A stretch of 63,969 nucleotides of DNA, filler included, from Planctomycetota bacterium (GTDB taxonomy: Bacteria > Planctomycetota > Planctomycetia > JALXBF01), in assembly GCA_026991575.1 (NCBI GenBank). It is 3 parts of 3 records of this genome, joined end to end, with 100 filler letters (N's around TTAATTAATTAA, not from the genome) between each part and the next. Parts side by side here need not be neighbours in the genome. Positions count along the whole stretch, not along the records: positions 21,851 to 43,266 come from JALXBF010000063.1; 2 more parts are not named here. The stretch is one strand, 5' to 3'. The notes under the pieces were generated by a model. It saw only the letters and a program-made list of their open reading frames with translations, did not search any database and was not told the origin of the DNA. Positions 21,751 through 40,072 of the stretch are shown piece by piece. The translations under genes were made by a program, and so were the position numbers. Position 1 is the stretch's first letter. Each line of letters opens with the position of its first letter.

Positions 21751-21850
21751 NNNNNNNNNNNNNNNNNNNNNNNNNNNNNNNNNNNNNNNNNNNNTTAATT
21801 AATTAANNNNNNNNNNNNNNNNNNNNNNNNNNNNNNNNNNNNNNNNNNNN
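21751..21850. other. Artificial contig linker/assembly gap
   Basis: N44-TTAATTAATTAA-N44 (stops in all six frames). Confidence 0.98.
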
Positions 21851-22769
21851 GGCGCGCTGCGAGCAGGACGGTGAGAAGTCCGAGGGCGGACAGGGCTGCC
21901 CATAGCCACAGGTGGCTTCCGCCCGACGGACGGGGTGCGGGAATGCCGAACGCCTCTGGTCGAAACAAATCCATGGGCGGCGGGGTCGGATCGAAGGAGA
22001 TTAGCCGAGCCTCAAGTCCGACGATGTCGTAGTGGGGCAGATACACCTTTGCCCATTCGACGATCGGGACTCCGTCAACCTCGCGGCCGTAGCGCAGGTC
22101 GCAGGCCCTGGCCTCCTTGCGGTACTCGCCGATCCACCAGGTCCACCCCTGAAGCGTCCAGTGACGCTCAGGATCGAACCGGAGCACCAGGTGCATCGGG
22201 TCATCCGTGCGAGGGACGGAGCGTGTGAGATGTACGAGGTATACCGAACCGCTCTCGTCCTGGCGGTGCCGCTCAGATTCCAGTTTCCACTGCTCCGAGG
22301 AAAGGATCTGCACGAGCGGCTGCCCTTGGAAGCTCAGTGCCATAAACGGAAGCAGGCCCCCGTCTTCCGCGACGAAGCCATAAGGTGAGCTGTTGTACCA
22401 GGCCCACACGTCGGACCACTCCCCTCTGCTCGACGTCCACCAACGGAGATAGTACGCCGCACCCTGCTCGACTCGCTTTATGCGGAACATGCCCGCAGGA
22501 GTGTAAATGAAGGCGCCCGTAACTCGTACCGTCGAGCTGTCTTCTTCGAGGCCATCAAGCCGAACCGCCGGCCAGCGGATGTAGAGACGCCTCCTTCCTG
22601 TTCTGCCCTCTCGGTCAGTCACGGAGTAGATCCACGTGCCACTGCCGTAGGCCTGCACGAGCCCGCGCCACGCCGAAGGGTACGTGTCCCTAATTGAGGC
22701 CATCTCGTGGATTGGGGCCTGTGCGCAGGCCGCCGTAAGAGAGGCGAGTGTCACGAGAAACGTGCCCAT
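21851..22769 (-). CDS. Family-A partner protein (signal peptide, C-terminal TM anchor), 3'-truncated by gap
   Basis: Paralog of 23238 and 24681 ORFs; G.GTW, RWPAVR.D, PPPMDLFRPEAFGIP, LWLWAALSALGLLTVLLAAR. Confidence 0.85.
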
Positions 22770-22816
22770 GGTCTTGTTACCCCCGTGCTAGCGACCGTCT
22801 AGGAGCCGAGTAGATC

Positions 22817-23101
22817 CTAAGGCATTGACATATCTATCTTGCAGACGCAGTCTGTTGTGCCGGGCGAAGAAGTGAAGTCGTGGCATCTGCATTCGGGATC
22901 GTTCCGGTCACACTGGTGTTTCCACACCCTTGGATCGCACTGGTTCGGCGAGATCGTGAAGCAGCGCAGGGCAGTAGGCCTGCACTGGTTCGGGGGCGGG
23001 GGCGACGGCTTGGCCTGAACGAGTCCTGTTACGACCGATGCAGCCAACTGCCCGACGAACAACCCCGAAGCGGCTGCGAGGACATGGCGTCTCGAGAGCA
23101 T
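22817..23101 (-). CDS. Exported 8-Cys peptide A3 with twin-arginine-like signal, 94 aa
   Basis: MLSRRHVL...VQA then KPSPPPPNQC-x6-C-x7-C-x8-C-x6-CxC-x11-CxC; GAGGAGG RBS; three paralogs. Confidence 0.85.
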   Translation of the reverse strand: MLSRRHVLAAASGLFVGQLAASVVTGLVQAKPSPPPPNQCRPTALRCFTISPNQCDPRVWKHQCDRNDPECRCHDFTSSPGTTDCVCKIDMSMP

Positions 23102-23237
23102 CGCAGCAACCTCCTCTCGCATTGCCGTCGGATAACACGTTGCCGCTAAAGGCGCGGCAAGGTCGTCACAAGGTGCTCAGCTCGATAGCCCATTGCCGTG
23201 TCCGCCGCGCCCGTAATGGCCCGCGTTGTAACTCAGC

Positions 23238-24224
23238 TCACCCTGGCGGTGAGCTCACGTCCCGTTCCGCCGCAGCGTGGCCTCTTTGCCTGCCGGCGAG
23301 CAGGCGCGCTGCGAGCAGGACGGTCAGAAGTCCGAGGGCGGACAGTGCTGCCCATAGCCACAGGTGGCTTCCGCCCGAGGGACTGGGTGTGGGAATGCCA
23401 AATGCCTCTGGTCGAAACAAATCCATGGGCGGCGGGGTCGGATCGAAGGAGATTAGCCGAGCCTCAAGTCCGACGATGTCGTAGTGGGGCAGATACACCT
23501 TTGCCCATTCGACGATCGGGACGCCGTCAACCTCGCGGCCGTAGCGCAGGTCGCAGGCTCTGGCCTCCTTGCGGTACTCACCGATCCACCAGATCCACCC
23601 CTGAAGCGTCCAGTGACGCTCGGGATCGAACCGTAACAGGAGGTGGAACGGCTCGCTAATGCCTGGCACCTGGTGCTCTAGTCGTACGGTGTATTCCGTC
23701 CTGTCGTCGTTCTGCTGGTACTTCTCCGCTCTAATGTGCCAGTCTTCCGATGAGAGGATATGAACGAGCGGTCGGCCGTCGAAACTCAGCGCCATAAAGG
23801 GGAGTGATCCGGTGTTCTCGGCGATGAAGGGACAGCGCCGAGAACTGTTGTACCGCGTCCACGGATCCGCGTTGTCCTCTTTGTCGTTCGTCCACCACGC
23901 CAGATAGTACGTGCCCGCGCGCTTGACACGTTCCAGGACGAACCTCCCGGAAGGCGTATAAATCCTCGAGCGTTCGGCAACTGCAGTACCGTCGCTGGCC
24001 GAGAGCCAGTCGATACGAACGGCCGGCCATCGTGTGTAGAGGCGCACGGCTTCCGTTCTGCCACCCCGGTGCGTGACGGAAATTACCCAGGTGCCGTGGC
24101 CGTAGACACGCATCAAGTCCTTCCATACTGTTGGGTATATATCTCTTATCGTGCCTCGATCGCCGTCTGAGTCAGGAAGGTGCGACATGAGTAGGACACA
24201 TAAGACCAAAGGACGCAATTCCAT
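23238..24224 (-). CDS. Family-A partner protein, 328 aa
   Basis: Hydrophobic N-terminus, same motifs, C-terminal TM plus basic tail. Confidence 0.88.
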   Translation of the reverse strand: MELRPLVLCVLLMSHLPDSDGDRGTIRDIYPTVWKDLMRVYGHGTWVISVTHRGGRTEAVRLYTRWPAVRIDWLSASDGTAVAERSRIYTPSGRFVLERVKRAGTYYLAWWTNDKEDNADPWTRYNSSRRCPFIAENTGSLPFMALSFDGRPLVHILSSEDWHIRAEKYQQNDDRTEYTVRLEHQVPGISEPFHLLLRFDPERHWTLQGWIWWIGEYRKEARACDLRYGREVDGVPIVEWAKVYLPHYDIVGLEARLISFDPTPPPMDLFRPEAFGIPTPSPSGGSHLWLWAALSALGLLTVLLAARLLAGRQRGHAAAERDVSSPPG

Positions 24225-24271
24225 GGTCTTTCATCCCCCGTTGGGCTCCATGCGGTGTTATTGTGACCTGA

Positions 24272-24544
24272 TTATGGGATCTCACACACGCAGCCGACAG
24301 TGCCCGGTGAGGATGTCATGTCGTGGCATCCGCATTGGGAGTTGTTCCGGTCGCACTGGTGTTTCCACACCCTTGGATCGCACTGGTTTGGTGAGATGGT
24401 GAAGCACTGGAGGGCGGTGGGCCTGCACTGGTTCGGGGGCGGGGGCGACGGCTTGGCCTGAACGAGTCCTGTTACGACCGATGCAGCCAACTGCCCGATG
24501 AAGAGCCCCGACGCTGCTGCGAGGACATGGCGTCTCGAGAGCAT
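24272..24544 (-). CDS. Exported 8-Cys peptide A2, 90 aa
   Basis: Same signal and Cys spacing; ends CGCHDMTSSPGTVGCVCEIP. Confidence 0.85.
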   Translation of the reverse strand: MLSRRHVLAAASGLFIGQLAASVVTGLVQAKPSPPPPNQCRPTALQCFTISPNQCDPRVWKHQCDRNNSQCGCHDMTSSPGTVGCVCEIP

Positions 24545-24680
24545 CGCAGCAACCTCCTCTCGCATTGCCGTCGGATAACGCGTTGCCGCTAGACATGCGG
24601 CAAGGTCTTCACGAGATTCTCAGCCCAATAGCCCGTTGCCGTGTCTGCCACGCCCGTAATGGCCCGCATTGTAACTCAGC

Positions 24681-25667
24681 TTACCCTGGTGGTGAGGCGA
24701 CGTCTCGCTTCGCCGCAGCGCGGCCTCTTTGCCTGCCGGCGAGCAGGCGCGCTGCGAGCAGGACGGTGAGAAGTCCGAGGGCGGACAGGGCTGCCCATAG
24801 CCACAGGTGGCTTCCGCCCGACGGACGGGGTGCGGGAATGCCGAACGCCTCTGGTCGAAACAAATCCATGGGTGGCGGAGTCGGGTCAAACGAGATTAGC
24901 CTGGCCTCAAGTCCGACGATGTCGTAGTGCGGCAGATACACCTTTGCCCATTCGACGATGGGGACGCCGTCAACCTCGCGGCCGTAGCGCAGGTCGCAGG
25001 CCCTGGCCTCCTTGCGGTACTCACCGATCCACCAGGTCCACCCCTGAAGCGTCCAGTGACGCTCGGGATCGAACCGGAGCACCAGGTGCATCGGGTCATC
25101 CGTGCGAGGGACGGAGCGTGTGAGATGTACGAGGTATACCGAACCGCTCTCGTCCTGGCGGGGCCGCTCAGATTCCAGTTTCCACTGCTCAGAGGAAAGG
25201 AGCTGCACGAGCGGCTGCCCCTGAAAGCTCAGTGCCATAAACGGAAGCAGGCCCCCGTCTTCCGCGACGAAGCCATAAGGTGAGCCGTTGTACCAGGCCC
25301 ACACGTCAGACCTCTCGCCTCCGCTCGACGTCCACCAGCGGAGATAGTACGTATCGCGCCTGCCGACATGCCTTACGTCGTAAATTGCCGCAGGCGTGTA
25401 GATCAATGCGCCTGACACGGTTTCGCTCGCTCCCTCGGATGTGAGTCCGTCAATTCGAACTGCCGGCCAGCGCGCATAGATCCGCGACTTGTCCGTTCTC
25501 CCCTCTCGGTCGGTCACTGAGAATACCCAGGTGCCGTTGCCGTACACGCGCAACAGATCGCCCCACACCGAGGTATAGATCCCCCTTATTGAGCTGCTCG
25601 ACTCGGCCGGGGTGGGGTCGGTGGTGAGCACTGCAGGTAAGATGCACAGAACCTCAAAGCTCGGCAT
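24681..25667 (-). CDS. Family-A partner protein, 328 aa
   Basis: Start reassigned to MPSFEVLC (ATG 25667, GAGG RBS); C-terminal ~200 aa nearly identical to the 21851-22769 copy. Confidence 0.88.
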   Translation of the reverse strand: MPSFEVLCILPAVLTTDPTPAESSSSIRGIYTSVWGDLLRVYGNGTWVFSVTDREGRTDKSRIYARWPAVRIDGLTSEGASETVSGALIYTPAAIYDVRHVGRRDTYYLRWWTSSGGERSDVWAWYNGSPYGFVAEDGGLLPFMALSFQGQPLVQLLSSEQWKLESERPRQDESGSVYLVHLTRSVPRTDDPMHLVLRFDPERHWTLQGWTWWIGEYRKEARACDLRYGREVDGVPIVEWAKVYLPHYDIVGLEARLISFDPTPPPMDLFRPEAFGIPAPRPSGGSHLWLWAALSALGLLTVLLAARLLAGRQRGRAAAKRDVASPPG

Positions 25668-25714
25668 TGTGACCTCGCCCTCCGCGATGTTCGGGGAGCG
25701 CCCGCTGCGGCCGC

Positions 25715-26002
25715 CTATGGCCGTGGCCTGGGCCCGTGTTTGCAAACACACCCTGTGGTCCCCGGTGACGACGTGAAGTCGTGGCAAGCACACTGGGGAT
25801 CGTTCCGGTCGCACTGGTGTTTCCACACCCTTGGATCGCACTGGTTTGGTGAGATGGTGAAGCACTGGAGGGCAGTGGGCCTGCATTGGTTCGGGGGCGG
25901 AGGCGACGGCTTGGCCTGGACCAGGCCATTCGTGACCGTCGCAGCCAACTGCCCGATGAAGAGCCCCGATGCTGCTGCGAGGACATGGCGTCTCTGGAGC
26001 AT
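25715..26002 (-). CDS. Exported 8-Cys peptide A1, 95 aa
   Basis: MLQRRHVL signal; same Cys spacing; ends CVCKHGPRPRP. Confidence 0.85.
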   Translation of the reverse strand: MLQRRHVLAAASGLFIGQLAATVTNGLVQAKPSPPPPNQCRPTALQCFTISPNQCDPRVWKHQCDRNDPQCACHDFTSSPGTTGCVCKHGPRPRP

Positions 26003-26424
26003 CGCAGCAACCTCCTCTCACAGCGCTACCGGACAACGCGCTCCCGCTCGGCGCGTCTTCGGATCGTGAGAAGTTTTTCAGTTCCAATGGGCCGTTTGGA
26101 CCATCTTTCCACGCGCGGCGAGCGCCGCCGGACGCCTTGCCACAATGCCTCGGGCCGGGGCCAGGCGCGGCAGGGGCGCAACCGCTGATCCATGCCTGCC
26201 GCACCACGGGACCAGTGCCGGTCGGCTTCCCCATAGACCAGTTCCCAGCGGGTGGCCGCAACGTGCTGCCGGGCGGCTTACTGGAGCCGGTGGCGCGCCA
26301 CGCAAGGCGGCGATCCGTCCGTAACCTACCACCATCGACAGGGGCCTGCGCCGCCCTGGATAGCCGCGACCAAGCACCGGGTCCGAAGCTCTCATCTGCT
26401 CCTCCTGCTGTCTTTGGTCCCTCG

Positions 26425-27372
26425 CTAGCTCGGGCCGTCAACGTCCGGGCCCACGCTGCCACGCAAGAGCATTCGCGCTAGCAGCAGGACGGTCAGGAGG
26501 CCCAGTGCGCACAGGACCGCCCAGAGCCACAGGCGCGTGGCCGGCGCTGACTGGCGAGGAGGAGGGATCCCGAACACCTCGGGTCGGAAAACATCTAAGG
26601 ATGGCTGACGCGCATCGTATGAGACCAATTCAGATGTCCATACGACCGAGCCGTCGCGGGCGCGCCGCCACTCGGCCCGCTCTACCAGTGGAACCCCTTT
26701 TGCAGGCGTACGGTACCAGAGTTCTATTACATCCCCCGACGAGGGGACGGAAACCAGGGAGGCGACATGCATCCGTCGCAAGACCCAGCACGGGCCCCTT
26801 TCGAACCAGAATCTGTTGCGGAGCACCCTGCTCCTACTCTTTTGCTCCTGTTCCAGGAGCAGCAATCGGCTTTCTTCCGACGAAACCCACTGCTCACGGA
26901 CGATTCGGACGTCGGAACGCTGACAGAGTTGCTCAGTCAAGGGGGTTCCGAACCAGCCGAGGGGGACGAAGGGCAGCCATCCGCGGTTGACCGCCGACAT
27001 CCAGAAGCGATCTCTATCGGGCAGTGTACCCGCGCGGTAGTACTCCAGGAGATATTGACCGGAGCCTTCGAGCCGCTTAACCCGGAAACTGGCCGTGCGC
27101 GAGAAAACGTACGCGGCCTCGACTTCGTCGTGCCGGCCAAGGAAGTCGACCCGTACGTCAGGCCAACGGGCCAGAACACGGATTCGCCTGCGTGTGGGCG
27201 TGCTTTCCGATGAGCCCTCGTGGTATGCATTGGAGAATACCCACGTGCCCTGACCGTAGACCCGGATCAGGGTACTCCACGAATACTGGTATTCGCGGCA
27301 GAAGCCGGCCTTCGGTGCTACGACCTCCTCTACCGGCGAGCACGCGATGAGCAGGAGGATGGCGATCACCAT
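26425..27372 (-). CDS. Divergent family-A partner protein, 315 aa; possible lipobox
   Basis: YGQGTWVFS, ARWPDVRVD, PSLDVFRPEVFGIP, RLWLWAVLCALGLLTVLLLAR; N-terminus MVIAILLLIAC. Confidence 0.85.
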   Translation of the reverse strand: MVIAILLLIACSPVEEVVAPKAGFCREYQYSWSTLIRVYGQGTWVFSNAYHEGSSESTPTRRRIRVLARWPDVRVDFLGRHDEVEAAYVFSRTASFRVKRLEGSGQYLLEYYRAGTLPDRDRFWMSAVNRGWLPFVPLGWFGTPLTEQLCQRSDVRIVREQWVSSEESRLLLLEQEQKSRSRVLRNRFWFERGPCWVLRRMHVASLVSVPSSGDVIELWYRTPAKGVPLVERAEWRRARDGSVVWTSELVSYDARQPSLDVFRPEVFGIPPPRQSAPATRLWLWAVLCALGLLTVLLLARMLLRGSVGPDVDGPS

Positions 27373-27431
27373 GACGGAGACTGTCCATCAGCGGCTCGGT
27401 TCATCAGCTCAGGCCCACACAGTCGGCATCA

Positions 27432-27580
27432 TCATGGGATGACGCACACGCATTCAAGGTCATGGTTACACTCGCAAACACAGCAGGGAGCTTGTCGTAC
27501 TCGCGGCCGGTTTTACAGGAGCCTTCGCTGCTGATGCACGGGTAACTCTCGACAAACACCCGACCGTAGCCTCGTCCTCG
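27432..27580 (-). pseudogene. Frameshifted remnant of a Cys-rich peptide gene (5' limit approximate)
   Basis: One frame reads YPCISSEGSCKTGREYDK, the next reads PCCVCECNHDLECVCVIP-stop, matching the CxC...CVCEIP end of peptide A2. It lies in the expected peptide slot. Confidence 0.5.
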
Positions 27581-27815
27581 TCAAATCCCTCTTGGCTGGC
27601 CCGCAGGCCACGTGGGCGAACACAGGCGGCTGTGCCCTGGCGTCCGCTTTGCGACCATGGCCTAGTGCGGTCGGTGCGTGTCGGGGCCGTCCCTTCTGCC
27701 CCTTGCTCCCGTTGGGGCATGCCGGCCGGGGGGCTCTGGAGACCCATCCATGCCCCGATACATCCTGCCTGTGTTTCCCGTCTCCCACACCTCCGCTGGG
27801 AGCCGTGCTACGGTG

Positions 27816-28787
27816 TTAGCCACGCCCCGGGCTGCTTGCATCGTTGGCGTCTCGGGGTGTGTCAACATTCTTGCCGGGTTCGGCACCTCCGAGGAAGCGG
27901 AACAGGAGGAGGACGGTTAACAGGCCCAGCGTGCCCAGGACAGCCCACAACCAGAACCGCGTGAGGGCGACACGCGCGGGCGTTTGGATTCCGAAAGCCT
28001 CGGGCCGGAACGCTTCCTCGGGCGGCGGCCTCAGCTGCACCTCAAGCACGTGAGCTTCCCACAGGGTGGGGCCACCCGGAACTGCGAACCTGCCGCGCTC
28101 TACTAGGGGTACGCCGACCGGCCCATCACGATATTCCAGCTCGCATACGCCGATGGGCCGGTCATCCGACTCCATGTACAGTCCCCATCGACGCACGATC
28201 CATGCCTTGTCGGGTGTAAACCAGAGCCGCAGGCGTGCTTGCTCCCGCCGGTACGTCGGCACACGAAGTTCAACCACCAGTTGGCGCTCGTCTCCCGCAC
28301 GGACCCACTTCTCGCCGAGCAGCGCGATACCGCCCGGCAGTTTGATCAGATCCACAAAAGCGCCGCCAAACCAACTGAGTGTGGCAAGGGGAAGCCATCC
28401 GCGGTTGCTCGGGATATACCAGAACTCGGAGGGGACGGCGGCCTTTGGCGACCACGATGTCAGGACAAAGATTCCCAGCTCACCCACGCGCCGGACGCGG
28501 AAACGGTGGCGGGGAGACCAGACTGATGCAAAAACTGTTGTTGCGCCGTCGCCGACCTCGTCGATCCTCACCGCAGGCCAGCGGGCCAGCAGGCGTATGG
28601 TCTCCTCCTCGCCAGACCGGCGCCGCACACGAATCGTCCAGATGGCGTTTCCGTACACGTCGACCAATCGCCTCCATGCGAACGAATATTCCTTGCGCCA
28701 GAGAGACTCTTCTCCGCCCGGAGCCTGGGCCCAGCCCAGACCCAGGAGCATCGGAAGGACCGTGAGCTTAGCGGCCTGCTCCGGCAT
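27816..28787 (-). CDS. Divergent family-A partner protein, 323 aa
   Basis: YGNAIW, ARWPAVRID, NRGWLP, PPPEEAFRPEAFGI, FWLWAVLGTLGLLTVLLL. Confidence 0.85.
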   Translation of the reverse strand: MPEQAAKLTVLPMLLGLGWAQAPGGEESLWRKEYSFAWRRLVDVYGNAIWTIRVRRRSGEEETIRLLARWPAVRIDEVGDGATTVFASVWSPRHRFRVRRVGELGIFVLTSWSPKAAVPSEFWYIPSNRGWLPLATLSWFGGAFVDLIKLPGGIALLGEKWVRAGDERQLVVELRVPTYRREQARLRLWFTPDKAWIVRRWGLYMESDDRPIGVCELEYRDGPVGVPLVERGRFAVPGGPTLWEAHVLEVQLRPPPEEAFRPEAFGIQTPARVALTRFWLWAVLGTLGLLTVLLLFRFLGGAEPGKNVDTPRDANDASSPGRG

Positions 28788-28808
28788 GCGGCCAAACTCC
28801 GTGCGATG

Positions 28809-29228
28809 CTATTCGCTACGCGCAGGCCCGACCGGGGGCCTGTGACGATTAATTTTTCGGATGGATGCAGCCACAGCCGAACCCCTTTGCTGATCAAAAG
28901 ACCTGCTTAGCGCCAGAAGTGCGAGAAGTCCATACAGACACGCGAACACTCGCAGCACGCGCCGCCGCCCCGCATGGGCCAGCCAGAGACCGGCCACAAC
29001 TTCAACCACTGCGATTGACGTCGCCAGCGGTGCACTTACGATCCCCACCACCGGCAGCCTCACGAAGCCGTGCTGGCCGATTGCCAGCAGCTTCGCCACA
29101 CCGGCAAACACCAGAAGGGCTGCTCCTGCGGGCTGAGCCACGCGGGCAAGGGCAGCAAACCCAGCACGCCAAACCGCCGCTGACGTGTCCCTGAACACGT
29201 CTGCAACCGCAGACAGCAACGCTGCCAT
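28809..29228 (-). pseudogene. MauE/DoxX-like membrane protein, frameshifted before its CGC motif
   Basis: LLVFAGVAKL...VVEVVAGLWL...LYGLLALLAL in frame. FGCGCIHPKN-stop appears only in a shifted frame near 28850-28885. Confidence 0.6.
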
Positions 29229-29295
29229 TCTGTCCTCTCCGTGCTCGGAGAGCTCGTTCCCTCCACAGCCCGGGTCCGGTGTCCAGACTTGCCCC

Positions 29296-29321
29296 ATTAT
29301 CCTCCTCCTCCTCCTTGTCAA
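29296..29321 (-). promoter_or_regulatory. Microsatellite-spaced promoter TTGACA-(AGG)5-ATAAT (14-bp spacer)
   Basis: Plus strand ATTAT-(CCT)5-TGTCAA; lies upstream of the family-A gene run. Confidence 0.7.
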
Positions 29322-30129
29322 GTCCCCGGATCCAGCGGTCTAGCGGGCGAAGCAGGGGCTCGCGGGCGGTGTTTGCCATGCGGATGGGGTGGCAGATTCA
29401 TCCCTCGGGAGCGCACGGCGGTGGCATGCCGACAGACCGTCGTTGGGTCGGCGCCGTGGCCGCGTGCACTTGCCTGCGTGAGGAGTGCGAATCCACCTGC
29501 GAGATGGCGAGCGGGCCGGCTCCCAGCCGAAGCCCTGCCGATGGGAATGAGGTGGTCAACCCGCCAGCTTGCTTCGGTGAGCGGGAGGGGGCTTCATGCC
29601 CCCCTCCCGCAAGGTTGATGGATAGCGCCGGCGCATCGCCGAGAAGATTTCTTCTCTGCCGAGCCGCGGGTGGGTCGATCCCGCCCGCGGCTCGGGCGGT
29701 GGGGTTTCCCTGGGCCGTCGGCGTGGGCGAGCAGATTTCGTTGTGCTTCGGGCGGGAGCGCGACCCCGCCGCGCCGACGCCGCGGGCGCCGGCCGCGGCG
29801 GCGGGGGGTTTTCCAATCGGCCGAAGAAAACACAACACGGGGCACCTCGGCGGCAGCCAACCGACCAGTCGGGACGGGACAGAAAGCCCCCGACATGACT
29901 ATCCGAGCAGGCGGACCGGTCTGTTAGCTTTCGAGTTCGCAAGACACCCCGCGGACAGGGCGAGCATCTCCATCATCGTCTGAGCGGCACAGACAGCGGG
30001 CCACTTGCCGGCAGCGCGATCGTGCAGCCGAAACCCACCCGTTGCGTGGTCCATCCGATCGTCCCTATCGGCTTCCATGGCATTGTCGGTTGAGTGCTCT
30101 ATGTCTTGCGAAGGCCGAACCAGGTTCCC

Positions 30130-31779
30130 CTACCGGCCGCTATCAGGCGGACCGCTGGCGGCGGCGCCGCATCCACAGCGTTGACGTTGGACTCTCATGC
30201 CCCCCTGCGGCACGGTAGTCGCCGTCGTTGAGTCCGATGCTCCTTCGGCCGTGGCGCGGTCCTGAAGTGTGAGGATGATGTGCCGCGTGTCTGCGCAACC
30301 GGAATCGTAGTAGACGGTTGCCCACGCGATGCCGTAGCCAGGTAGCTCTTTGACCAGCCATGCGTTCTGGTGAGAGCAGGCCAGCCACACACGCTCCCCC
30401 TTGACGTCGGTCAGGTGGGAGACGTGTTGCTCGCGCACGAGCGCCGGAGCGTACACGATGAGACGCCTGTCACGATCAGCCAGTTCCGGTGCGTAGACGA
30501 CCAGTTGCAGCGGCACCGGTGGATGTGTCAGGTAGTACTTCAGACGCAAGAAGCACTCGGCGTCGCCAACGAACACATCGCCGGGCTGGCTGTACTTTCG
30601 TACTTCCAGCGCTGCAAGCCGAGCAGCCTCGCGCGCGGGCACGCGATGCCATAGCGCGGCGATGGCCGAGAAGCTGACCGCGATCATGAACAGCGACAAC
30701 GCGACGCCGCGCCAGAATGTGCTCTCCAGCACGAACGCCTTACTGGCCAGCGTGATCATGGCAAGCGGGACGAGATGCACGAGGTAGCGTGCCTCGAAGA
30801 CACTCTGTTTCAGGATGACTGTGCCGAGCACGATTCCCAGCGCGTGAGTCAACGCGATGGCCAGGAACAACCACTCGAATGCAGCTCCGAACCAGGGCAC
30901 GATCAGCAGCAAGCCGAAGGCGGCAGCCAGCACGACGAGCCAGCCACTGGGAGGGGAACCCCACGTTATCGCGCTGATCGGCTCGCTGAACAGCTGTGCC
31001 CACGGACCGGCCAGAGCGTGCCAGCTGAGTGGCGGGATCCAGAACCCACCGCTGACGCGCTGAGCCTGGCCGACAAGCACGGGGACCCAAGGACCATAGG
31101 CTAGCGCCAGAAGGGCGACACTGACCACGCCGCGGCGTAGCAGCAAGTTTCGGACCGGCCGCTCAGCCGCCAGAGTCGCGCCCACGAGCCACAAGAGCTC
31201 TCCTGCAACGACGAACAACCCGTAGTTGTGGGAGTACACCGCGATCACACTCCCGGCCCACCATGCCAGCCAGGGGCCGAGCCGGTGCGGTGTACGGGCC
31301 ACGGCCAGGCAGCCGGCGACGCTCAACATCGTCCCGAACATAAGCATGGCATACATCCGTGCCATGTACGCCGTGCTCGCACACGCGGGATTGGCTGCAG
31401 TCAGCAGGAACGACACCAACGCGAGTTCCTCAGCCCGCTTGACCCGGGCGCTGAAGCCATACCATCCGGCCCAGAACACACACGCGACCGCAGCTACCGA
31501 AAGAATGCCCGACAGAAGGCGCATGCTGAAGATGCTGTCCCCGAGAAGCTCAATCCAGAAATGCAGCAGCAGGTAGTGGCCCGGGGGATGGGTATCCCCA
31601 GCGACCATGCGCAGCAGCTCGGGGACGGGTTGCGTCGCCACGGCCCAGCTGAACGCTTCGTCGTTCCAGAAGCAGACCTTGTCGGTCCAGAGGTTGATCC
31701 GCGCCAGCGTGGCCAGCAGTATGCCTGCCAGCAGGATCCGCCACGGCCGGCTTGTCTCTTGCCGGGCGCCCTGGGTCAC
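30130..31779 (-). CDS. GT-C superfamily integral-membrane glycosyltransferase (PMT/ArnT-like)
   Basis: FWNDEAFS, DTHPPGHYLLL, RLLS, ARMYAM, YSHNYG, PWVP, RYL; many TM helices. Confidence 0.88.
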   Translation of the reverse strand: MTQGARQETSRPWRILLAGILLATLARINLWTDKVCFWNDEAFSWAVATQPVPELLRMVAGDTHPPGHYLLLHFWIELLGDSIFSMRLLSGILSVAAVACVFWAGWYGFSARVKRAEELALVSFLLTAANPACASTAYMARMYAMLMFGTMLSVAGCLAVARTPHRLGPWLAWWAGSVIAVYSHNYGLFVVAGELLWLVGATLAAERPVRNLLLRRGVVSVALLALAYGPWVPVLVGQAQRVSGGFWIPPLSWHALAGPWAQLFSEPISAITWGSPPSGWLVVLAAAFGLLLIVPWFGAAFEWLFLAIALTHALGIVLGTVILKQSVFEARYLVHLVPLAMITLASKAFVLESTFWRGVALSLFMIAVSFSAIAALWHRVPAREAARLAALEVRKYSQPGDVFVGDAECFLRLKYYLTHPPVPLQLVVYAPELADRDRRLIVYAPALVREQHVSHLTDVKGERVWLACSHQNAWLVKELPGYGIAWATVYYDSGCADTRHIILTLQDRATAEGASDSTTATTVPQGGMRVQRQRCGCGAAASGPPDSGR

Positions 31780-33389
31780 GTGTCCCTCCCGTCGATGGAC
31801 TGCTCTGCGGTGCCACGTCGCTCGGCGGTCCGCTTGGCCTCGTGCCGCGACGCGCGCGAGCGAAAACCGCTAGCAGGCTCGATTCCGTCCCGTTTCCGAG
31901 CCGCCCAGGCGCGAACCGGTACCAGACAGCGGACGTCTACCCACTGTTCCAGGTGTAAACCGACAGTGCTTAGCAACTCGGCCAGTTCGTCCGACTTGGC
32001 GAAGTACACGGTACGCTCCAGCAGGCGAACGATACCGCCGTGGATGAGGCGACCGGTGAATGTGTCGACGTTCCCGTCGGCGAGGATCACGAGGCCTCCG
32101 GGTCGGACGACCCGGCTGATCTCGGCGACGGCCTGACCCAGCGACCGGAAATGGTGAGCGGCGTGCAAGCAGACAACGACGTCAAACACGCCACTCCTGA
32201 AGGGCAGGTGCTCGGCTTCGGACCGCACGACGGGCTGCCCGTGCACATTTCTAGGAAGTGGGTCCACGCCAACGTACCGTAGCCTCTGGTGTAAGCTGTC
32301 GGGCCACGCGTTGGCAAAGCCGCACGTGCCGCTGCCAACGTCCAGTACCCTTCCGGCACGCGGGCAGGGGATCAGTTCCAGGGCTGCGCAGTAGGTGGGT
32401 TGGAAAAACCACCGGTGCAGGAAGGCTCCGTCGTATAGCGGAGCGTAGCGGGCAAACAGGATCACATTGGAACGTCTTACCCGCCGGGCGGAATCTGGAT
32501 TCGGGCCGGCTGCAGTTGGTCGTCCCGGCCGGGAAGGCTGCGCCGCATGGGGCTGGAGAGCCTCGGCCATCCCACGGCCACGCAGCTGGGCCAACCGGAT
32601 CAGCATCCGCAAACCGTCACGCACAAAGCTAAGACGTGAGCCGGGACATTCCGTCCAGCGCACGGGCACGGCCCGGATCTGCTTGCCTGTCTTCCAGGCT
32701 AGTGTCAGCAGTTCCAGATCGAAGAGGTAGCCGGTCTCTGTTGTCCGTTCGACCAGCGGTCGCATGCGGTTACGGTCGAGCGCTTTGAAGCCGATTTGGG
32801 GATCGACGACGGGACAACCGGTTAGCCAACGGGCAGCGACGGCGAACAGACGGCTGCCCAGTCGCCGATACCAGAGCCGCTTGACCTTGCCTGCGGCGGC
32901 GCCGCGGACGCGGCAGCCGACCGCGAAATCGGCCCCCAGGGAGATGGCCTGGGCGAGTCGGAGTAGGTCTTCCGGTGGGGTTGCTCCATCGGCATCAGCG
33001 AACAGAACGCACTGCCCACGGGCGGCGAGGAACCCGGTCCGTAACGCCGCCCCCTTGCCCCGGTTCCGCTCGTGCCGGATCACACGCAGCGAGCCTGTTT
33101 GAGGCAGGACCTCCAGCAGTGCCTGCACAGGCTGGATGCTGCCGTCATCGACGATGATGACCTCGTGCCGATCCCCGAAAGCTTGCTCCAGAGCTGGCAA
33201 CAGACGCCGCAGGTGTGTCACCAGCCGCTCGTCCTCGTTGTAAGCCGGAATAACCACGGACACGGCGCATCCGGCGACGGTGTGCCGAGCGGAACGGGAA
33301 GCGGACCCGGCCAGACCTGGCCGGTCGTGCTTCTCGGCTTGACGTCCGGCGCAAGAAACCGCTGGCCTAATCCTGGTCCTACTCGCCAT
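31776..33389 (-). CDS. GT2 polyprenol-phosphate glycosyltransferase fused to class I SAM methyltransferase
   Basis: VVIPAYNE, IVDDGS, NRGKGAA, FADADG, DPQIGFK, YLFDLE; then VLDVGSGT, AEHLPF, FDVV, RVVRPGG. Confidence 0.85.
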   Translation of the reverse strand: MASRTRIRPAVSCAGRQAEKHDRPGLAGSASRSARHTVAGCAVSVVIPAYNEDERLVTHLRRLLPALEQAFGDRHEVIIVDDGSIQPVQALLEVLPQTGSLRVIRHERNRGKGAALRTGFLAARGQCVLFADADGATPPEDLLRLAQAISLGADFAVGCRVRGAAAGKVKRLWYRRLGSRLFAVAARWLTGCPVVDPQIGFKALDRNRMRPLVERTTETGYLFDLELLTLAWKTGKQIRAVPVRWTECPGSRLSFVRDGLRMLIRLAQLRGRGMAEALQPHAAQPSRPGRPTAAGPNPDSARRVRRSNVILFARYAPLYDGAFLHRWFFQPTYCAALELIPCPRAGRVLDVGSGTCGFANAWPDSLHQRLRYVGVDPLPRNVHGQPVVRSEAEHLPFRSGVFDVVVCLHAAHHFRSLGQAVAEISRVVRPGGLVILADGNVDTFTGRLIHGGIVRLLERTVYFAKSDELAELLSTVGLHLEQWVDVRCLVPVRAWAARKRDGIEPASGFRSRASRHEAKRTAERRGTAEQSIDGRDT

Positions 33390-35040
33390 TAGCTGTCCGG
33401 TCCTCTGCACGAGCCAGTGGGCGCAACTCGCGCAGCTCCGCGTAGCTCAGCTGCACCGTGCTCACCCCATCTCGGCCCACGTAGATCCAGCCCGGCCCGG
33501 CAGGCAGCTGGGCAACGATCTGGCCAGACGGGTCGACGACCGCAGATCCTCGATAGGCCTGTGCGGACAATTGCCAGCGCCGTGCCTGAATCCCCCGGCT
33601 CCGCAGTGCCCATCGATGTTCGACGAGTAGGCCCGGCGATGCGGCGAACCGTGATTCATCGCCTATGTGGATCACCGCGGCAATGTTGCTGCCCGGTGTG
33701 GCGTGCGCTCCCCAGTAGACGTACTTTTCCAGGCAGATCGCGACGCGAAACCGCATCTTGCGGCCATCGATGGAACAAATCATGGCTGGGCGCGGGGATC
33801 CGGGCATGAGCACAGGGGGTGGGGTGTGCCACAGCCCCAGAAGACGGCCTAGCTCCAGAAGCTCCGCCGGCGCTGTTTCCAAGAACCAGACTAGGGTCCG
33901 TTTCTCATACCACTGAAAGCTGCCGTCCGGGCCGACGCAGACAGCGCCATTAGTGCGGCGTCCGTTGGGGTAATGCAGTAGCAGGCCGATGATGAAATAG
34001 GTGTCCCAGCGTCTGGCAATGGGCAGGACGGTGTTTTCAAGATCCAAATTGCCCGGCATCTCCAGCAGACGCAGACTACCGTCCGAGGTTTCCTTGACGT
34101 ACGCTGTGCCCAACGTTGTCTCAGGCCACACCACGATGTTCGGACGATGCTCCTGCAGAGCAGCCAGTGTCAGTGCGGCCGCTGTCTCGTCGCGGCCTAG
34201 TGCGGGCACGCCTGCAATGGGCACAGCCGGCACGCCCGGTTGGACCAGAAGGACACCGGACACTGCGGGGGCAGAGCGGGAGCCGGAATGCTGCCAGGCC
34301 AGCCCAAGGAGGTTCGAGGCCACAAGCAGACTAACCCAGGCGGCGATGTACGCTCGCCGGGACGCACGTCTGGTCAGCCACAGGCTCAGTGCGGTCTGCT
34401 GGAACACATTCAGCCATGCCAGTCCCAGCGGCCCGAGGATGGACAGGAGTTGTCCCATTGGCAACGCGGACAGCGGGCTGTGGGACGCCAGTGTGGGCCA
34501 GGCAAACACCCACGCGCGTCCGTGCTCCAGGGATACGACGACCAACGGCCCAACGCACAGGAGGACGGCCGGCCAACGCGAAAGCAGGCTGTACACTTCG
34601 GCCACGATACCCAGCTGGATTCCGAAGAGAAGGCATGCCCCGAAAGCGGCACAGTAGCCGGCGGTTGAATCGGCTACCGAGCAGAGGTAGGGCGCGGCGA
34701 GCATTGCCGTGGTAGCTCCGACCACGGTACCCCAACCGAGGCCCCAGCGACCCAGCAGCGCGAAGCCGAAGAGCGGTACCCAGCAGAAGAGGGCGCCCAC
34801 AGTGATTCCAAACCGGTAGGTAACTACCCACGCACCTACCGTCACGGATACCAGTGCGGCGTTGAGAAGCAGACGGTACAGGGCGATCCGGAACCGTGAG
34901 AACCTTCGCGAGCCCGTGCTGCTGGACGATCCGTCGACGCTGACGGATGGCGTGAAGCGGCGCAGCGCGAGTGCGGAAAGTGACTCCAACCGGGTCCCTA
35001 GCAGTCTCAGCATTGGTCCGCCCGGTGCAGGACCGCGCAT
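33379..35040 (-). CDS. Apolipoprotein N-acyltransferase (Lnt)-like membrane nitrilase-fold enzyme
   Basis: N-terminal TM bundle, VQPG, VVWPET (E), YEKRTLV (K), AICLE (C), GSAVVDPSG. Confidence 0.78.
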   Translation of the reverse strand: MRGPAPGGPMLRLLGTRLESLSALALRRFTPSVSVDGSSSSTGSRRFSRFRIALYRLLLNAALVSVTVGAWVVTYRFGITVGALFCWVPLFGFALLGRWGLGWGTVVGATTAMLAAPYLCSVADSTAGYCAAFGACLLFGIQLGIVAEVYSLLSRWPAVLLCVGPLVVVSLEHGRAWVFAWPTLASHSPLSALPMGQLLSILGPLGLAWLNVFQQTALSLWLTRRASRRAYIAAWVSLLVASNLLGLAWQHSGSRSAPAVSGVLLVQPGVPAVPIAGVPALGRDETAAALTLAALQEHRPNIVVWPETTLGTAYVKETSDGSLRLLEMPGNLDLENTVLPIARRWDTYFIIGLLLHYPNGRRTNGAVCVGPDGSFQWYEKRTLVWFLETAPAELLELGRLLGLWHTPPPVLMPGSPRPAMICSIDGRKMRFRVAICLEKYVYWGAHATPGSNIAAVIHIGDESRFAASPGLLVEHRWALRSRGIQARRWQLSAQAYRGSAVVDPSGQIVAQLPAGPGWIYVGRDGVSTVQLSYAELRELRPLARAEDRTANGE

Positions 35041-35603
35041 TAGCTTCCCCCCTTTTCACGTTCGCCCGGGTCCGCGCGGCTGCTCGTTGCGCTTGCAGAA
35101 TGACCGGCGGAGCTAGCGACGGCGTGGGTCGGCAGCCTGACCGGTATGGTACCCACGTCGGGTCCTACGTAGAGCACAACCCACTCGTCGTTGGAAGCCT
35201 CACCGGTCGAGGGCCTGGCGTCCGGATCCGTGCGTACGCGAAAGACCAGGGTGATCGTCTGCCCGGGGGGGATGGACCGCGGCAGTTGGTCCGTGAGCAC
35301 GCAGTTGCAACTCGCCTGAGCGCCGTAGATAGTCAACGTGCGGCTGGTGAGGTTCTTGAGTCCCACGGGAACGCGGATCACTCCGTTGGACGTTGTCGTT
35401 GGCGCAAGGACGCTCACGGCGAGCTTTTCACCGCCCAGCCACGCGAGGAAATCGTGGAGCGATCCCTTCCAGAGCACACCTGCGCCGATCACGCCGAGGG
35501 CCAACAGCAGTCCCAGCGTGCTGCCCATGATCAAGGATCTAAACTGTGGCCGATCAAACGCCGCTCTAACCATGCCTGAGCGCGCTTCAGTCACCGCGTG
35601 CAT
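35040..35603 (-). CDS. DUF1573-like Ig-fold membrane-anchored protein (start uncertain)
   Basis: TM helix, then LKNLTSRTLTIYGAQASCNC...IPPGQ. Stop overlaps next start (TAATG). Confidence 0.72.
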   Translation of the reverse strand: MHAVTEARSGMVRAAFDRPQFRSLIMGSTLGLLLALGVIGAGVLWKGSLHDFLAWLGGEKLAVSVLAPTTTSNGVIRVPVGLKNLTSRTLTIYGAQASCNCVLTDQLPRSIPPGQTITLVFRVRTDPDARPSTGEASNDEWVVLYVGPDVGTIPVRLPTHAVASSAGHSASATSSRADPGEREKGGS

Positions 35604-36816
35604 CCCCTACGTCGAATTGACGCGATCGGCCCCAACTCCCCGCGGTGGGCTGTCGGGAGCCGACAGCCAGACCGGTCACAGAGGCCCGATCGACGACCGA
35701 CGGGGCCACTACTAGTGCCCGGGGCCGCCTGCCTTGCGCGGTGCGACCTGCACTGGACGTAGTCTTTTGTTTCGCTGCGGTGCGGTGCTGTGGGAGGGTG
35801 CCGTTCCGCACACCGGCACCATAGCCGCGCTTGCCGACGGCTGTGCTGTCTGGACGGGGAGAAAGGTGTCGCACTTCGACAACGATATCCTTGTGTACGC
35901 GGATGAGTAGAGGGGTCTGCCGGACCGATTTCGCCGGGGTCGGTAGCGCGACCACTTGCCAGCCGCTGGCCTGCAGCAAGGACTGCAAATCCTGGTCGGC
36001 GGACAGTAGGACGACCGTTGGCGGATTATCTTCGCCTGGCGGTGCGAAGAGCAGCGGACGCAGATGCTTCACTGAGCGTCGGCACTCAGAGCAAGTGGGA
36101 TCCAGTAGTAGCATGGAGTTCTTGCGGTGCTGGTTTTCCGTAACAGCGTGCAGCATACGAGGCACTGGTTGCCCAAGCCATTGATAGGGATCTACGAGGA
36201 CGCTGCCGCTTCTTGTGACAAGTACTCCCGAGTAGACCTCATGCACTGACCGAGCTGCGAGGGCGACAGAGACGGCGCTGACCGTTGCCAAGCAGGTAGC
36301 GATTCCGGTGCCCAGGGTGACGGACGTGGTGGTGGTGGCGTCAGACCCCGATCTGGTGGCTCGAACGAAGAGTAGTGTTCCAACAGTGAAGTCGAACATG
36401 CTGACCAGTAGGGGATGGATCTGGACGAACGGACCAAAGCAACCGCACGTATCGCGGCCGAGTCCCGCCATCGTTAGAGCGGCGGCTCCCAGAAGCCACC
36501 ACCACAGGGCTGCGAGTCGCTGCAGGGTTCGCCACTGAGGGGTGATGATCAGGACGGTGCCGAGCCAGAGCTCAACGGGAACGGCAGCGTAGCTGACGGT
36601 GGCGAGCCAGCCATCTGCGGCTACGACCCAGCCGAATCGCCACAGTGCTGCCAGCTTGAAGACACTCGCCGCGACAAGAGTGAGTCCAAGTACGACAGGC
36701 AGAGCAGCGCCGGACAAGCTAGCGACCAGAAGGTTCTTGACCGGGCTTTGGCCGCCTTTCGGAGCGCGTGCCGCGGTGTGTTCGGCTACGTTCGTCGTCT
36801 GGCGACTCGTTCTCAT
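35587..36816 (-). CDS. MauE/DoxX-family membrane protein with C-terminal thioredoxin-like CxxC domain
   Basis: LVAASVFKL, VELWLG, TCGCFG, then DPYQWLGQ...LLDPTCSECRR. Confidence 0.8.
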   Translation of the reverse strand: MRTSRQTTNVAEHTAARAPKGGQSPVKNLLVASLSGAALPVVLGLTLVAASVFKLAALWRFGWVVAADGWLATVSYAAVPVELWLGTVLIITPQWRTLQRLAALWWWLLGAAALTMAGLGRDTCGCFGPFVQIHPLLVSMFDFTVGTLLFVRATRSGSDATTTTSVTLGTGIATCLATVSAVSVALAARSVHEVYSGVLVTRSGSVLVDPYQWLGQPVPRMLHAVTENQHRKNSMLLLDPTCSECRRSVKHLRPLLFAPPGEDNPPTVVLLSADQDLQSLLQASGWQVVALPTPAKSVRQTPLLIRVHKDIVVEVRHLSPRPDSTAVGKRGYGAGVRNGTLPQHRTAAKQKTTSSAGRTAQGRRPRALVVAPSVVDRASVTGLAVGSRQPTAGSWGRSRQFDVGDARGD

Positions 36817-38290: not shown

Positions 38291-38511
38291 TCCTCTTCCT
38301 GGTCGTTCCACCTGCACTGCAGCGCGCCCTGTCGTTGGCAGTCGTTATTGCGGTAGGCGCACCTGGTCTTCTTGCTAGGAGTCCATCCGTCGCAGTGGAC
38401 GTCTAGGCTAGCCAGTGCAGGGCGTTCCACGGACCGAGCGGTTGCGAAAGCTAAGAGGAGGGACAGCATGCCGAGCGAGGAGGCAACGGCGACGAGCAGG
38501 GTCTGCTTCAT
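38284..38511 (-). CDS. Exported Cys-rich peptide B4, ending at an amber codon inside the terminal CxC
   Basis: MKQTLL signal; CDGWTPSKKTRCAYRNNDCQRQGALQCRWNDQEEEC-TAG-CIDN-TAA. Confidence 0.8.
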   Translation of the reverse strand: MKQTLLVAVASSLGMLSLLLAFATARSVERPALASLDVHCDGWTPSKKTRCAYRNNDCQRQGALQCRWNDQEEEC

Positions 38512-38686
38512 GGCCTGGCTCCGTCGTGATTGACCCGTCGCAGTTAGGGCTATCGGCACCGACTCTCCTTCTCCGCCGCCCCGTCGAGAGGCTGAGGCGT
38601 CAAAACTAATGTTTCCGGGCCGCGGCCCTGGCCGGGCCGCGCCATTTGGCCTTGGCCGTTGTCTTCGCACGGGCACCAAGTCCGGA

Positions 38687-39739: not shown

Positions 39740-39759
39740 GCGAACGTCTCCGCTGCGCG

Positions 39760-40011
39760 CTAGCCCCTGCACTCGCACTGGTTCATCTGATTAATCCACA
39801 TGCAGCGAAGTAGCCCCTGTTCCTGGCAACGATTGTTCCGAAGTGCACACCAGTTCGGATTGCTGGGCTGCCAGCCGTCGCACTGAGGGGGAGGGCCACC
39901 TTCTGCCCCCGGAACCGGTCGGTGCGCCGCTGCCAGCAAGGCCGCAACTGCCAACAGCACCGCTAGCACACTGGACGACGAGAACAGCGCCGCCAGGAGC
40001 GTTCGTTTCAT
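39760..40011 (-). CDS. Exported 6-Cys peptide B3, 83 aa
   Basis: MKRTLL plus hydrophobic signal; C-x10-C-x6-C-x7-C-x8-CxC; GGAGG RBS. Confidence 0.87.
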   Translation of the reverse strand: MKRTLLAALFSSSSVLAVLLAVAALLAAAHRPVPGAEGGPPPQCDGWQPSNPNWCALRNNRCQEQGLLRCMWINQMNQCECRG

Positions 40012-40072
40012 GGTCACGCCTCCGCTGAACGCTCGAACGGTGGCGTTGGTCATACAGCCCGATACCACCCCA

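Follow-up and report, generated by a model that had tools for sequence, protein, structure and literature searches.

Two arrays of peptide and partner genes

The window analysed here is a 63,969-nucleotide stretch of DNA from a bacterium of the Planctomycetota (assembly GCA_026991575.1), in which three contigs (C60, C63 and C70) of a 191-contig, 4.96-Mb draft genome, hereafter G000, have been pasted together. Our subject is its middle part, contig C63 (window positions 21851-43266, 21,416 bp), which carries two arrays of tandem cassettes, each composed of a short gene for a cysteine-rich peptide and, downstream of it, a gene for a larger partner protein (Table 1). Array A has the order pepA3-parA3-pepA2-parA2-pepA1-parA1, all on the minus strand, and array B comprises four such cassettes. 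Within each array, the junctions between neighbouring cassettes have been homogenised recently by gene conversion or unequal crossing-over, and the stretch that runs from the C-terminal tip of a peptide into the N-terminal head of its own partner has kept a much older divergence. Contig C63 starts inside a partner gene of array A and its other end lies just upstream of the first peptide of array B. Position 21851 is a contig join rather than a biological boundary, and the genes that flank either of the artificial linkers are not genomic neighbours.

The peptides of family A have eight invariant cysteines in the arrangement C..C..C..C..CxC..CxC (seven sequences from two genomes) along with Pro/Ser/Thr-rich stretches (SPPPP, TSSPGTT), and those of family B have six cysteines. 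Their signals consist of a hydrophobic core with an Ala-x-Ala-type end, and contain neither a GG motif nor a lipobox. Twin arginines occur in the signals of four of eight members of family A, all of them G000 copies, and we do not claim Tat export on this basis. Scans of the peptides yielded no Pfam or NCBIfam match at E<=1 and no PADLOC match at E<=0.01, and a search of PDB sequences with the peptide profile gave nothing at E<=10. Judged by their sequences, the peptides appear to be orphan disulfide-rich mini-proteins.

Two peculiarities of the array B peptides deserve mention. Peptide B4 ends in a TAG codon (38284-38286, minus strand) where the three other B peptides have the Glu of a final C-E-C, and the codons after this TAG (C-I-D-N) carry on the motif; the codon is either a nonsense mutation that removes the last cysteine or a read-through site. 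In the leader upstream of pepB1, 12 Arg codons follow one another (a CGN/AGG-type triplet repeat; 43083-43118, minus strand), and the leaders of pepB2 and pepB3 have four Arg codons at the matching place. The run in the pepB1 leader is a triplet-repeat expansion beside the contig end.

The AF2 model of partner A2, computed from a 12-row alignment, has a predicted local distance difference test score (pLDDT) of 81.3 and a predicted template modelling score (pTM) of 0.72, and it places an N-terminal helix before a long antiparallel sheet, with a C-terminal helix at residues 287-322. Foldseek matched this model to 69 PDB chains at E<=0.001 with entries of the LolA superfamily on top, the best being 3bk5 (E 3.3e-7; template modelling score 0.62, normalised to the target), and LolA3 and LolB of Porphyromonas, DUF1329, LprG and RseB were also among the matches. 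The model of partner B2 (pLDDT 79.7) gave the same set of matches, the best being 3buu at 5.3e-7. Both partner families are thus predicted to adopt a LolA-superfamily fold followed by a C-terminal membrane helix. At the sequence level, no match to LolA, LolB, MucB_RseB or TP_0789 was present in Pfam or NCBIfam at E<=1, and in the Atlas the partner reached only 0.80 to named sorting-protein clusters. Families A and B appear to be linked by predicted fold alone, given that hhalign provides a weak sequence link between them (probability 29%, E 5.8e-4, 206 collinear columns). A 593-aa open reading frame considered for partner A3 was replaced by a 328-aa reading that begins at MPSFEV.

Homogenised junctions and old variable blocks

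The three units of array A were aligned with MAFFT and compared both in 60-bp sliding windows and as block totals. Divergence is not uniform along the cassettes. The two complete conserved blocks are identical at 680 of 741 positions (91.8%) without a gap, and each extends from the RFDPERHW codons of one partner gene through its stop codon and a 115-bp spacer into the signal and core of the next peptide, as far as about CDRN. In contrast, the variable blocks, which hold the peptide tip, spacer and partner head, are only 55.7-72.0% identical. For the pairs A3/A2, A3/A1 and A2/A1, respectively, identity is 92.3, 87.3 and 93.6% in the peptide leader, signal and core; 52.5, 58.2 and 49.1% in the tip, spacer and partner head; 58.5, 96.0 and 60.7% in the partner middle (WWT..RFDPERHW); and 94.2, 95.9 and 96.3% in the partner tail from RFDPERHW. 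Copies within the conserved blocks differ by 4-13%, and the non-coding spacer inside them is 87% identical (159/182 and 173/200).

These figures bear out the original prediction, which had been made by inspection of the sequence. It had noted that partners A1 and A3 share a near-identical end of about 200 residues behind differing N-termini, and the shared end proves to cover about the last 215. It had also placed the entry of partner A2 into this identity at RFDPERHW, where the values rise from 58.5-60.7% to 94.2-96.3% at a boundary that is sharp to a few bases, and had located the differences between the peptides at their C-terminal ends, which indeed diverge after being identical or nearly so up to CDRN. 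Tract ends therefore differ by pair: A1 and A3 agree (about 96%) from WWT onwards, and A2 joins only from RFDPERHW. Smaller mosaics exist within the conserved block, with A2 equal to A1 in the signal and A3 equal to A2 in the core. That the pattern of shared differences switches within the block in this manner suggests that several conversion events, differing in their end points, contributed.

The three closest units of array B (B1-B3) have the same junction-centred layout. As had been noted for this array, the cores of pepB1 and pepB2 are identical up to CKWNM and the tails of the partners are identical but for one residue. The B1/B2 tract begins earlier in the partner gene than the tracts that are common with B3.

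Synonymous (dS) and non-synonymous (dN) divergence, estimated for both arrays by the Nei-Gojobori method (NG86), separates recent copying from constraint. In array A, dS is 0.12-0.22 in the partner tail (dN 0-0.024), 0.087 in the middle shared by A1 and A3, and 0.22-0.46 in the peptide core, as opposed to 0.87-1.80 in the partner head (dN 0.35-0.45, dN/dS 0.22-0.41) and saturation in the peptide tip (dN about 0.2). Conserved and variable blocks thus stand at 0.09-0.22 versus 0.87 to saturated, a step of about tenfold at the boundaries. Because synonymous and non-coding sites also take this step, the conserved block reflects recent homogenisation rather than mere constraint. In array B, dS is at least 1.3 in the heads (dN 0.35-0.40), 0.06-0.22 in the tails among B1-B3 and 0.036 in the core of pepB1 and pepB2. 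Maximum chi-square tests on seven pairs are in accord and place the heterogeneity beyond chance: none of 2000 permutations reached the observed value for any of the three pairs of array A or the three pairs among B1-B3, and six of the seven pairs gave 0/2000 in every region. For B1/B4 the count was 0/2000 over the whole unit and 50/2000 in the partner alone. Sliding-window identity, the maximum chi-square test and synonymous divergence all show the block structure, and recombination in the conserved block, as originally proposed, is upheld by the dS steps, the pair-specific tract ends, the sub-mosaics and the chi-square results.

The variable blocks are old. Most tip differences in array A are synonymous, all tip cysteines are kept, and there is no sign of positive selection in the variable block of array A at a region-wide dN/dS of 0.2-0.4 (n = 3 sequences). 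Tips and variable blocks have therefore been under purifying selection, and they are neither hypervariable nor diversifying.

Additional support comes from independent contigs. Logan run X1 contains 0.85 of the sampled words and is possibly the source sample. Its contigs match every variable block with zero differences and at similar depth (Table 1). Because single X1 contigs cover each variable block, each tip is physically joined to the head of its own partner. The proposal that tip and partner head travel together is accordingly supported in outline. The head is not a separable module, because the RFDPERHW boundary (residue 199) cuts through a single predicted LolA-like fold ahead of its last five strands, rather than falling between domains. 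Depth in stretches shared between units is 82 and 97 versus 42-45 in unique ones, which fits two copies, although depth is not copy number and we give this observation no weight.

The break at the start of C63 can also be accounted for. Its first 127 bases are an exact repeat of 24746-24872, and all other exact repeats in the arrays are at most 119 bp, which fits a de Bruijn assembly that breaks at k=127, a value of k that we infer. The reverse complement of the C63 start matches the start of contig C129 over 112 exact bases, and C129 supplies the part of the partner A1 tail that C63 lacks. A second public assembly has the same genes on one contig of 35,776 bp, including A1 with its tail (P0003).

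The protein P0001, encoded by a relative in another assembly, has an A2-type mature head: past the signal peptide, its identity to A2 is 88-95% in each window of 40 columns, which is similar to the level between partner A5 and its counterpart P0004 (92-98%). P0001 ends in a terminal-type tail, which in G000 belongs to A1. An A2-type head on a terminal tail is what unequal crossing-over or replacement in the conserved block would give. No peptide from the P0001 contig came up in the peptide search. Run X2, which holds 0.16 of the sampled words, gives patchy cover, and it has no contigs on 24119-28150 and so provides no evidence on absence of A3 or A4. Its contigs are identical to the A1 head (two contigs, 151 bp each) and differ by 2-2.3% on the A2 head and A5, and one loose end passes from the partner conserved block into a terminal-type tail. 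These differences, from a few short contigs, hint at uneven histories of the units between strains.

In G001, a genome of the same family and another genus, three peptide-partner units occupy the same operon. Their partner tails, spacers and peptide signals are 93-100% identical, and the rest is 20-60% identical for G1 versus G2 or G3. Here too the junction lies at the centre of the homogenised tract, which is shorter than in G000 and includes none of the mature peptide, all of which varies. Within each of the two genomes, G001 and G000, identity is 93-100% in the partner tails and peptide signals, yet these differ between one genome and the other. The third G001 partner (L011, G001:C343, 6218-7226) loses its frame before the membrane helix and has its tail in another frame (6218-6394), which is either a pseudogene or a sequencing error.

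Operon context and distribution

Cassettes sit in an operon whose order, MauE/thioredoxin-like gene (CxxC), a number of peptide-partner units, DUF1573-like gene, Lnt-like gene, glycosyltransferase-methyltransferase fusion (GT2-MT) and PMT_2-like gene, recurs in C63, in C129 and in G001:C343. Specifically, C129:358-10312, which follows array A, is a paralogous second operon with DUF1573-like, Lnt-like, GT2-MT and PMT_2-like genes, one B-type cassette, a MauE/CxxC gene and one A-type cassette, and C63 and C129 together amount to a super-locus of about 36 kb in which modules are repeated. The MauE model PF07291 has a cut-off of 27 bits and gives the G001 copy 36.8. The Lnt-like genes of the operons score 87 and 96 bits, below the TIGR00546 cut-off of 132.9, whereas the canonical Lnt of G000 (C50:14134-15375) reaches 256 bits, which marks the operon genes as diverged paralogs. 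G000 has this one canonical Lnt and two Lnt-like paralogs, the latter confined to the cassette operons. The paralogs retain WPE, YEK and AICLE motifs, which may correspond to the catalytic triad of Lnt. The PMT_2-like protein takes its label from Atlas features (score 0.99, 28 of 30 matches). It had no Pfam match even at E<=5, and a PDB sequence search returned nothing meaningful. This context suggests that the peptides, once exported, may undergo oxidative folding and perhaps glycosylation or acylation, with the LolA-fold partners handling them.

Not every partner gene has a peptide gene. Partners A4 and A5 are diverged paralogs within the operon, and a solitary A-type paralog (about 37-41% identity) lies outside it at G000 C161:4195-5199, behind an upstream open reading frame that ends in PCVACP. 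About 60 bp upstream of A4, a cysteine-rich stretch gives a weak match to the peptide tips (E 0.023 in a tiny search) and could be either an orphan tip or what is left of a peptide gene that has decayed.

Rfam returned no match on 21851-43266, and a scan of 21851-29400 for promoters and terminators gave one promoter-like and two terminator-like sites, not above shuffled expectation. Among the open reading frames of C63, C129 and G001:C343, the part of the genomes searched for this purpose, there is no dedicated ABC/C39 exporter.

The family is found in this one planctomycete family only. Partner A occurs in two of 341 genomes, namely G000 and G001: there was none beyond these two among 41 relatives, and the partner A profile matched none of 300 further genomes sampled across the phylum. 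Searches of 5.8 billion proteins gave six clusters for the partner A profile and six for the peptide A profile, and 1.84 billion proteins gave five representatives for partner B. Contig searches with single proteins (A5 against genome contigs, A2 against metagenome contigs) found no relative, and language-model features lead to unnamed clusters, mostly from Planctomycetota.

Table 1. Coordinates of the cassette arrays, neighbouring genes, supporting contigs and linkers, in window positions
Feature	Position	Strand	Remarks
Partner A1	21851-22769	-	LolA-like ectodomain (predicted); cut by the contig end at the C-terminal membrane helix
Peptide A1	22817-23122	-	Signal and 8-Cys mature part; gene callers start at MLSRRHVL (23101)
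Variable block 1	22189-22899	-	Peptide A1 tip, spacer, partner A1 head; about 96% identical to A3 downstream from 22463
Conserved block, junction A2 to A1	22900-23640	-	Partner A2 tail from RFDPERHW, stop codon, spacer, peptide A1 signal and core
Partner A2	23238-24224	-	328 aa; signal, LolA-superfamily domain (predicted), C-terminal membrane helix
Variable block 2	23641-24342	-	Peptide A2 tip, spacer, partner A2 head; 56% identical to other variable blocks
Peptide A2	24272-24565	-	
Conserved block, junction A3 to A2	24343-25083	-	
Partner A3	24681-25667	-	328 aa; true start MPSFEV
Peptide A3	25715-26002	-	
Partner A4	26425-27372	-	Diverged paralog (about 31% identity), lipobox-like LLIAC; no intact upstream peptide gene
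Possible peptide-tip remnant	27435-27512	-	CECNHDLECVCVIP, then two stops; Cys-rich; no signal or core
Partner A5	27816-28787	-	Diverged paralog, directly downstream of the MauE-like gene
MauE-like membrane protein	28809-29321	-	Pfam MauE 16.2 bits, below cut-off
Polytopic membrane protein, PMT_2/GT39-like	30130-31779	-	549 aa; Atlas features only
GT2 glycosyltransferase-methyltransferase fusion	31776-33410	-	GT2 domain resembles polyprenyl-phosphate sugar synthases
Lnt-like CN-hydrolase paralog	33379-35040	-	TIGR00546 82.9 bits, below cut-off
DUF1573-like protein	35040-35603	-	21.6 bits, below cut-off
Membrane protein, C-terminal CxxC region	35587-36816	-	Position of the G001 MauE/thioredoxin-like gene; no significant family match
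Array B, four cassettes	37214-43136	-	
Partner B4	37214-38317		
Peptide B4 (pepB4)	38284-38511	-	
Partner B3	38687-39778		
Peptide B3 (pepB3)	39760-40011	-	
Partner B2	40192-41241		
Peptide B2 (pepB2)	41263-41514	-	
Partner B1	41695-42741		
Peptide B1 (pepB1)	42765-43016	-	
X1 contig	22361-22940		Depth 42.3
X1 contig	23604-24373		Depth 45.3
X1 contig	25256-25831		Depth 45.5
X1 contig	25844-27235		Depth 44.4
X1 contig	27715-29387		Depth 42.1
Artificial linkers	21751-21850, 43267-43366	.	N44-TTAATTAATTAA-N44; the first separates C60 from C63; not biology

Possible roles of the cassettes and their significance

We believe that the arrays are best read as tandem two-gene cassettes that evolve by junction-centred recombination, with peptide and partner as a presumed pair, and we put the probability of this reading as a whole at roughly 70%. 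Each cassette encodes a mini-protein that is exported, rich in disulfides and about 60 residues long when mature, with six to eight invariant cysteines, and, directly downstream, a type-I membrane protein whose periplasmic part has the fold of LolA, LolB, LprG and RseB. Gene conversion and unequal crossing-over homogenise, time and again, a stretch that reaches from the 3' third of the partner gene across the spacer to the signal and core of the next peptide, while the stretch from tip to partner head escapes conversion and keeps its ancient, purifying-selected divergence. Each tip thereby passes on as a single haplotype together with the head of the partner just downstream of it, in a common scaffold that doubles as a homology arm for the gain, loss and reordering of units. 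The mosaic, its origin by recombination, the predicted fold of the partner and the operon context are established, and what we infer is that peptide and partner act as a cognate periplasmic pair. The MauE/thioredoxin-like protein might make the disulfides of the peptides, and the Lnt-like, GT2-MT and PMT_2-like proteins might perhaps add acyl or sugar groups.

Several observations weigh against this reading or restrict it. No other part of the partner proteins is as well conserved as their C-terminal region (FRPEAFGIP..LWLW..LGLLTVLL), which holds also for paralogs that are only about 30% identical, and because this juxtamembrane and membrane-helix motif is conserved in old paralogs, purifying selection adds to the contrast at the amino-acid level. 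There are three units per array, and formal breakpoint methods need at least four sequences. Among the eight X1 pieces listed, none spans a whole conserved block, and the order of units across these blocks therefore rests on two short-read assemblies. These assemblies differ at three residues (I/V in the signal of pepA2, L156I and P169H in parA3), all of which fall in conserved blocks and are each shifted toward the state of a paralog. The mosaic stands firm, but a few single-nucleotide differences within the repeats may be wrongly phased. An intact peptide gene is missing upstream of partners A4 and A5 and of the C161 copy, and a partner may for this reason act without a peptide. Finally, binding within the presumed cognate pair is an assumption of this reading. 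A complex prediction with the ectodomain of partner A2 (23-286) and mature peptide A2 (38-97), both supplied as alignments, gave a score of 0.02 and a mark of 0.32, was run without controls, and is uninformative either way.

It seems appropriate to question whether recombination is needed at all, given that the tail and membrane-helix motif is best conserved even among paralogs of 30% identity. In principle, one old duplication could yield such a pattern if purifying selection then acted more strongly on the tail, membrane helix and signal than on the head and tip, but we give this explanation hardly any credence, since synonymous sites and the spacer are conserved along with the protein, and the boundary is sharp to a few bases and varies between pairs. 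It is also very improbable, in our judgement, that the near-identity of the blocks arose in a metagenome assembly, through the collapse or chimeric joining of strain variants. Both ends of C63 do lie in or beside arrays, the two assemblies disagree at the three residues noted above, and X1 contigs carry alternative letters at 22071, 24499-24515 and 25023. However, all exact repeats other than the terminal one of 127 bp are shorter than this, such that a graph at the presumed k of 127 is unambiguous; the copies differ too much within the blocks (4-13%) to be collapsed; the contigs of the variable blocks are of equal depth (42-45); and the same mosaic exists in array B and in the independently assembled G001.

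The original prediction had likened the cassettes to polymorphic toxin-immunity pairs, and one could imagine bacteriocin-like or toxin-like peptides with cognate membrane immunity proteins, where recombination in the conserved block swaps tip and immunity-head units between cassettes or strains. A gene for a small secreted peptide just ahead of one for a membrane protein, repeated in tandem with an export part that is conserved and an end that varies, is what such a system would present; the partners that have no peptide and the possible orphan tip look like orphan immunity genes; P0001 combines a terminal tail with an A2-type head; and the blp region offers a precedent, in that its leaders are conserved and its mature peptides variable, with hybrid genes and with recombination blocks in common (PMC4517551). 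We nevertheless consider this role unlikely, and the analogy itself finds no support in our data. None of 11 cassette proteins matched PADLOC and none reached a curated cut-off in Pfam or NCBIfam, leaving no toxin, bacteriocin, immunity or defence family among the matches; dN/dS is 0.2-0.4 with the tips conserved at the protein level and every tip cysteine kept; the peptides have no double-glycine leader and the three loci no dedicated exporter; a LolA-fold ectodomain of 260 residues, as predicted for the partner, is unlike known small immunity proteins; and few potential targets are known for a family found in 2 of 341 genomes. An alternative that we regard as possible, although doubtful, is that the peptides are substrates of the envelope-modification enzymes of the operon and become glycosylated, acylated or both, with the LolA-fold partner as a membrane-tethered carrier or receptor of the modified peptide, in which case the cassettes would supply a diversified set of surface or periplasmic components rather than weapons. 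Cassettes in all three loci sit with an Lnt-like paralog that retains its motifs, a GT2-methyltransferase and a PMT_2-like membrane protein, the matches in the LolA superfamily include, by their entry titles, a LolA-lipoprotein complex and LprG with PIM (phosphatidylinositol mannoside) and with triacylglyceride, and the Pro/Ser/Thr-rich stretches of the family A peptides point in the same direction. Against this, the peptides lack a lipobox and their modification is a hypothesis, the PMT_2 label derives from language-model features, and gene neighbourhood does not prove a substrate relation.

Comparison with known systems indicates how the cassettes differ from each. The pneumococcal blp region has small exported peptides in tandem, whose N-terminal export sequences are conserved and whose mature ends vary, together with membrane proteins next to them, hybrid genes and shared recombination blocks (PMC4517551). 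The planctomycete peptides have a Sec/Tat-type signal instead of a double-glycine leader and a putative 8-Cys or 6-Cys knot instead of a Gly/Ala-rich mature part, the locus has no ABC/C39 exporter or quorum-sensing genes, and the partner is predicted to be a large LolA-fold ectodomain on one membrane helix. Among polymorphic toxins, such as those of contact-dependent inhibition (CDI; cdiA-CT/cdiI) and Rhs, the upstream part is conserved, the C-terminal tip behind it varies and is inherited along with the gene that follows, and modules are exchanged by homologous recombination in the conserved part. The arrays are similar in that a variable tip and the downstream gene form one block behind a conserved N-terminal part, each on one X1 contig, but they have no large delivery protein and no recognisable toxin domain, their dN/dS is below 1, and their conserved block includes the 3' third of the partner gene, such that the ‘immunity’ gene would itself be mosaic.

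The partners resemble LolA, LolB, LprG and RseB in their predicted N-terminal helix and open antiparallel sheet (E to 3e-7, template modelling score to 0.62), and depart from that superfamily in the absence of a match at the sequence level, in the C-terminal membrane tether, and in forming tandem paralogs each with a gene for a Cys-rich peptide. MauE and MauD serve the maturation of the disulfide-rich small subunit of methylamine dehydrogenase. A MauE-like CxxC membrane protein beside genes for small exported Cys-rich proteins is reminiscent of this arrangement, although there are no mau structural genes, the peptides are unrelated, and only the G001 copy reaches the PF07291 cut-off. In actinobacteria, the Lnt/Ppm1-Pmt set carries out protein O-mannosylation. 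Here also, an Lnt-like protein, a GT2 protein similar to polyprenyl-phosphate-sugar synthases and a PMT_2-like GT-C protein co-occur, but the GT2 domain is fused to a methyltransferase, the PMT_2 assignment is weak, and the organism is a planctomycete. A full-text literature search found no described system that pairs LolA-like partners with Cys-rich peptides or with immunity proteins.

Regardless of function, the arrays provide a clean natural case of junction-centred gene conversion that spans a gene boundary, with a tract that leads out of the 3' end of one gene and across the spacer into the 5' end of its neighbour. A single predicted protein fold is thereby split into a young and an ancient half, which constrains how chimeric LolA-like domains stay functional. 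Two orphan families are also defined, a Cys-rich mini-protein and a tail-anchored partner with a predicted LolA fold. To our knowledge, the handling of lipoproteins and glycoproteins by Planctomycetota is poorly understood, and a conserved operon with disulfide, acyltransferase-like and glycosyltransferase genes offers a testable entry to the envelope biology of this phylum.

If the pairs are cognate binders, then the three to four natural variants in each array would constitute a ready specificity panel. We can also envisage, as a speculative idea that we consider quite unlikely, a lineage-specific ligand-receptor system of the envelope, in which a knotted mini-protein, possibly glycosylated or acylated, would be read by its own tail-anchored LolA-fold receptor, as a counterpart of polymorphic self/non-self or kin-recognition loci. 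The old haplotypes of tip and head would then stay distinct, and gene conversion at the junctions would preserve one scaffold for export and anchoring. If true, the cassettes would represent a bacterial counterpart of kin recognition that is built from undescribed protein families.

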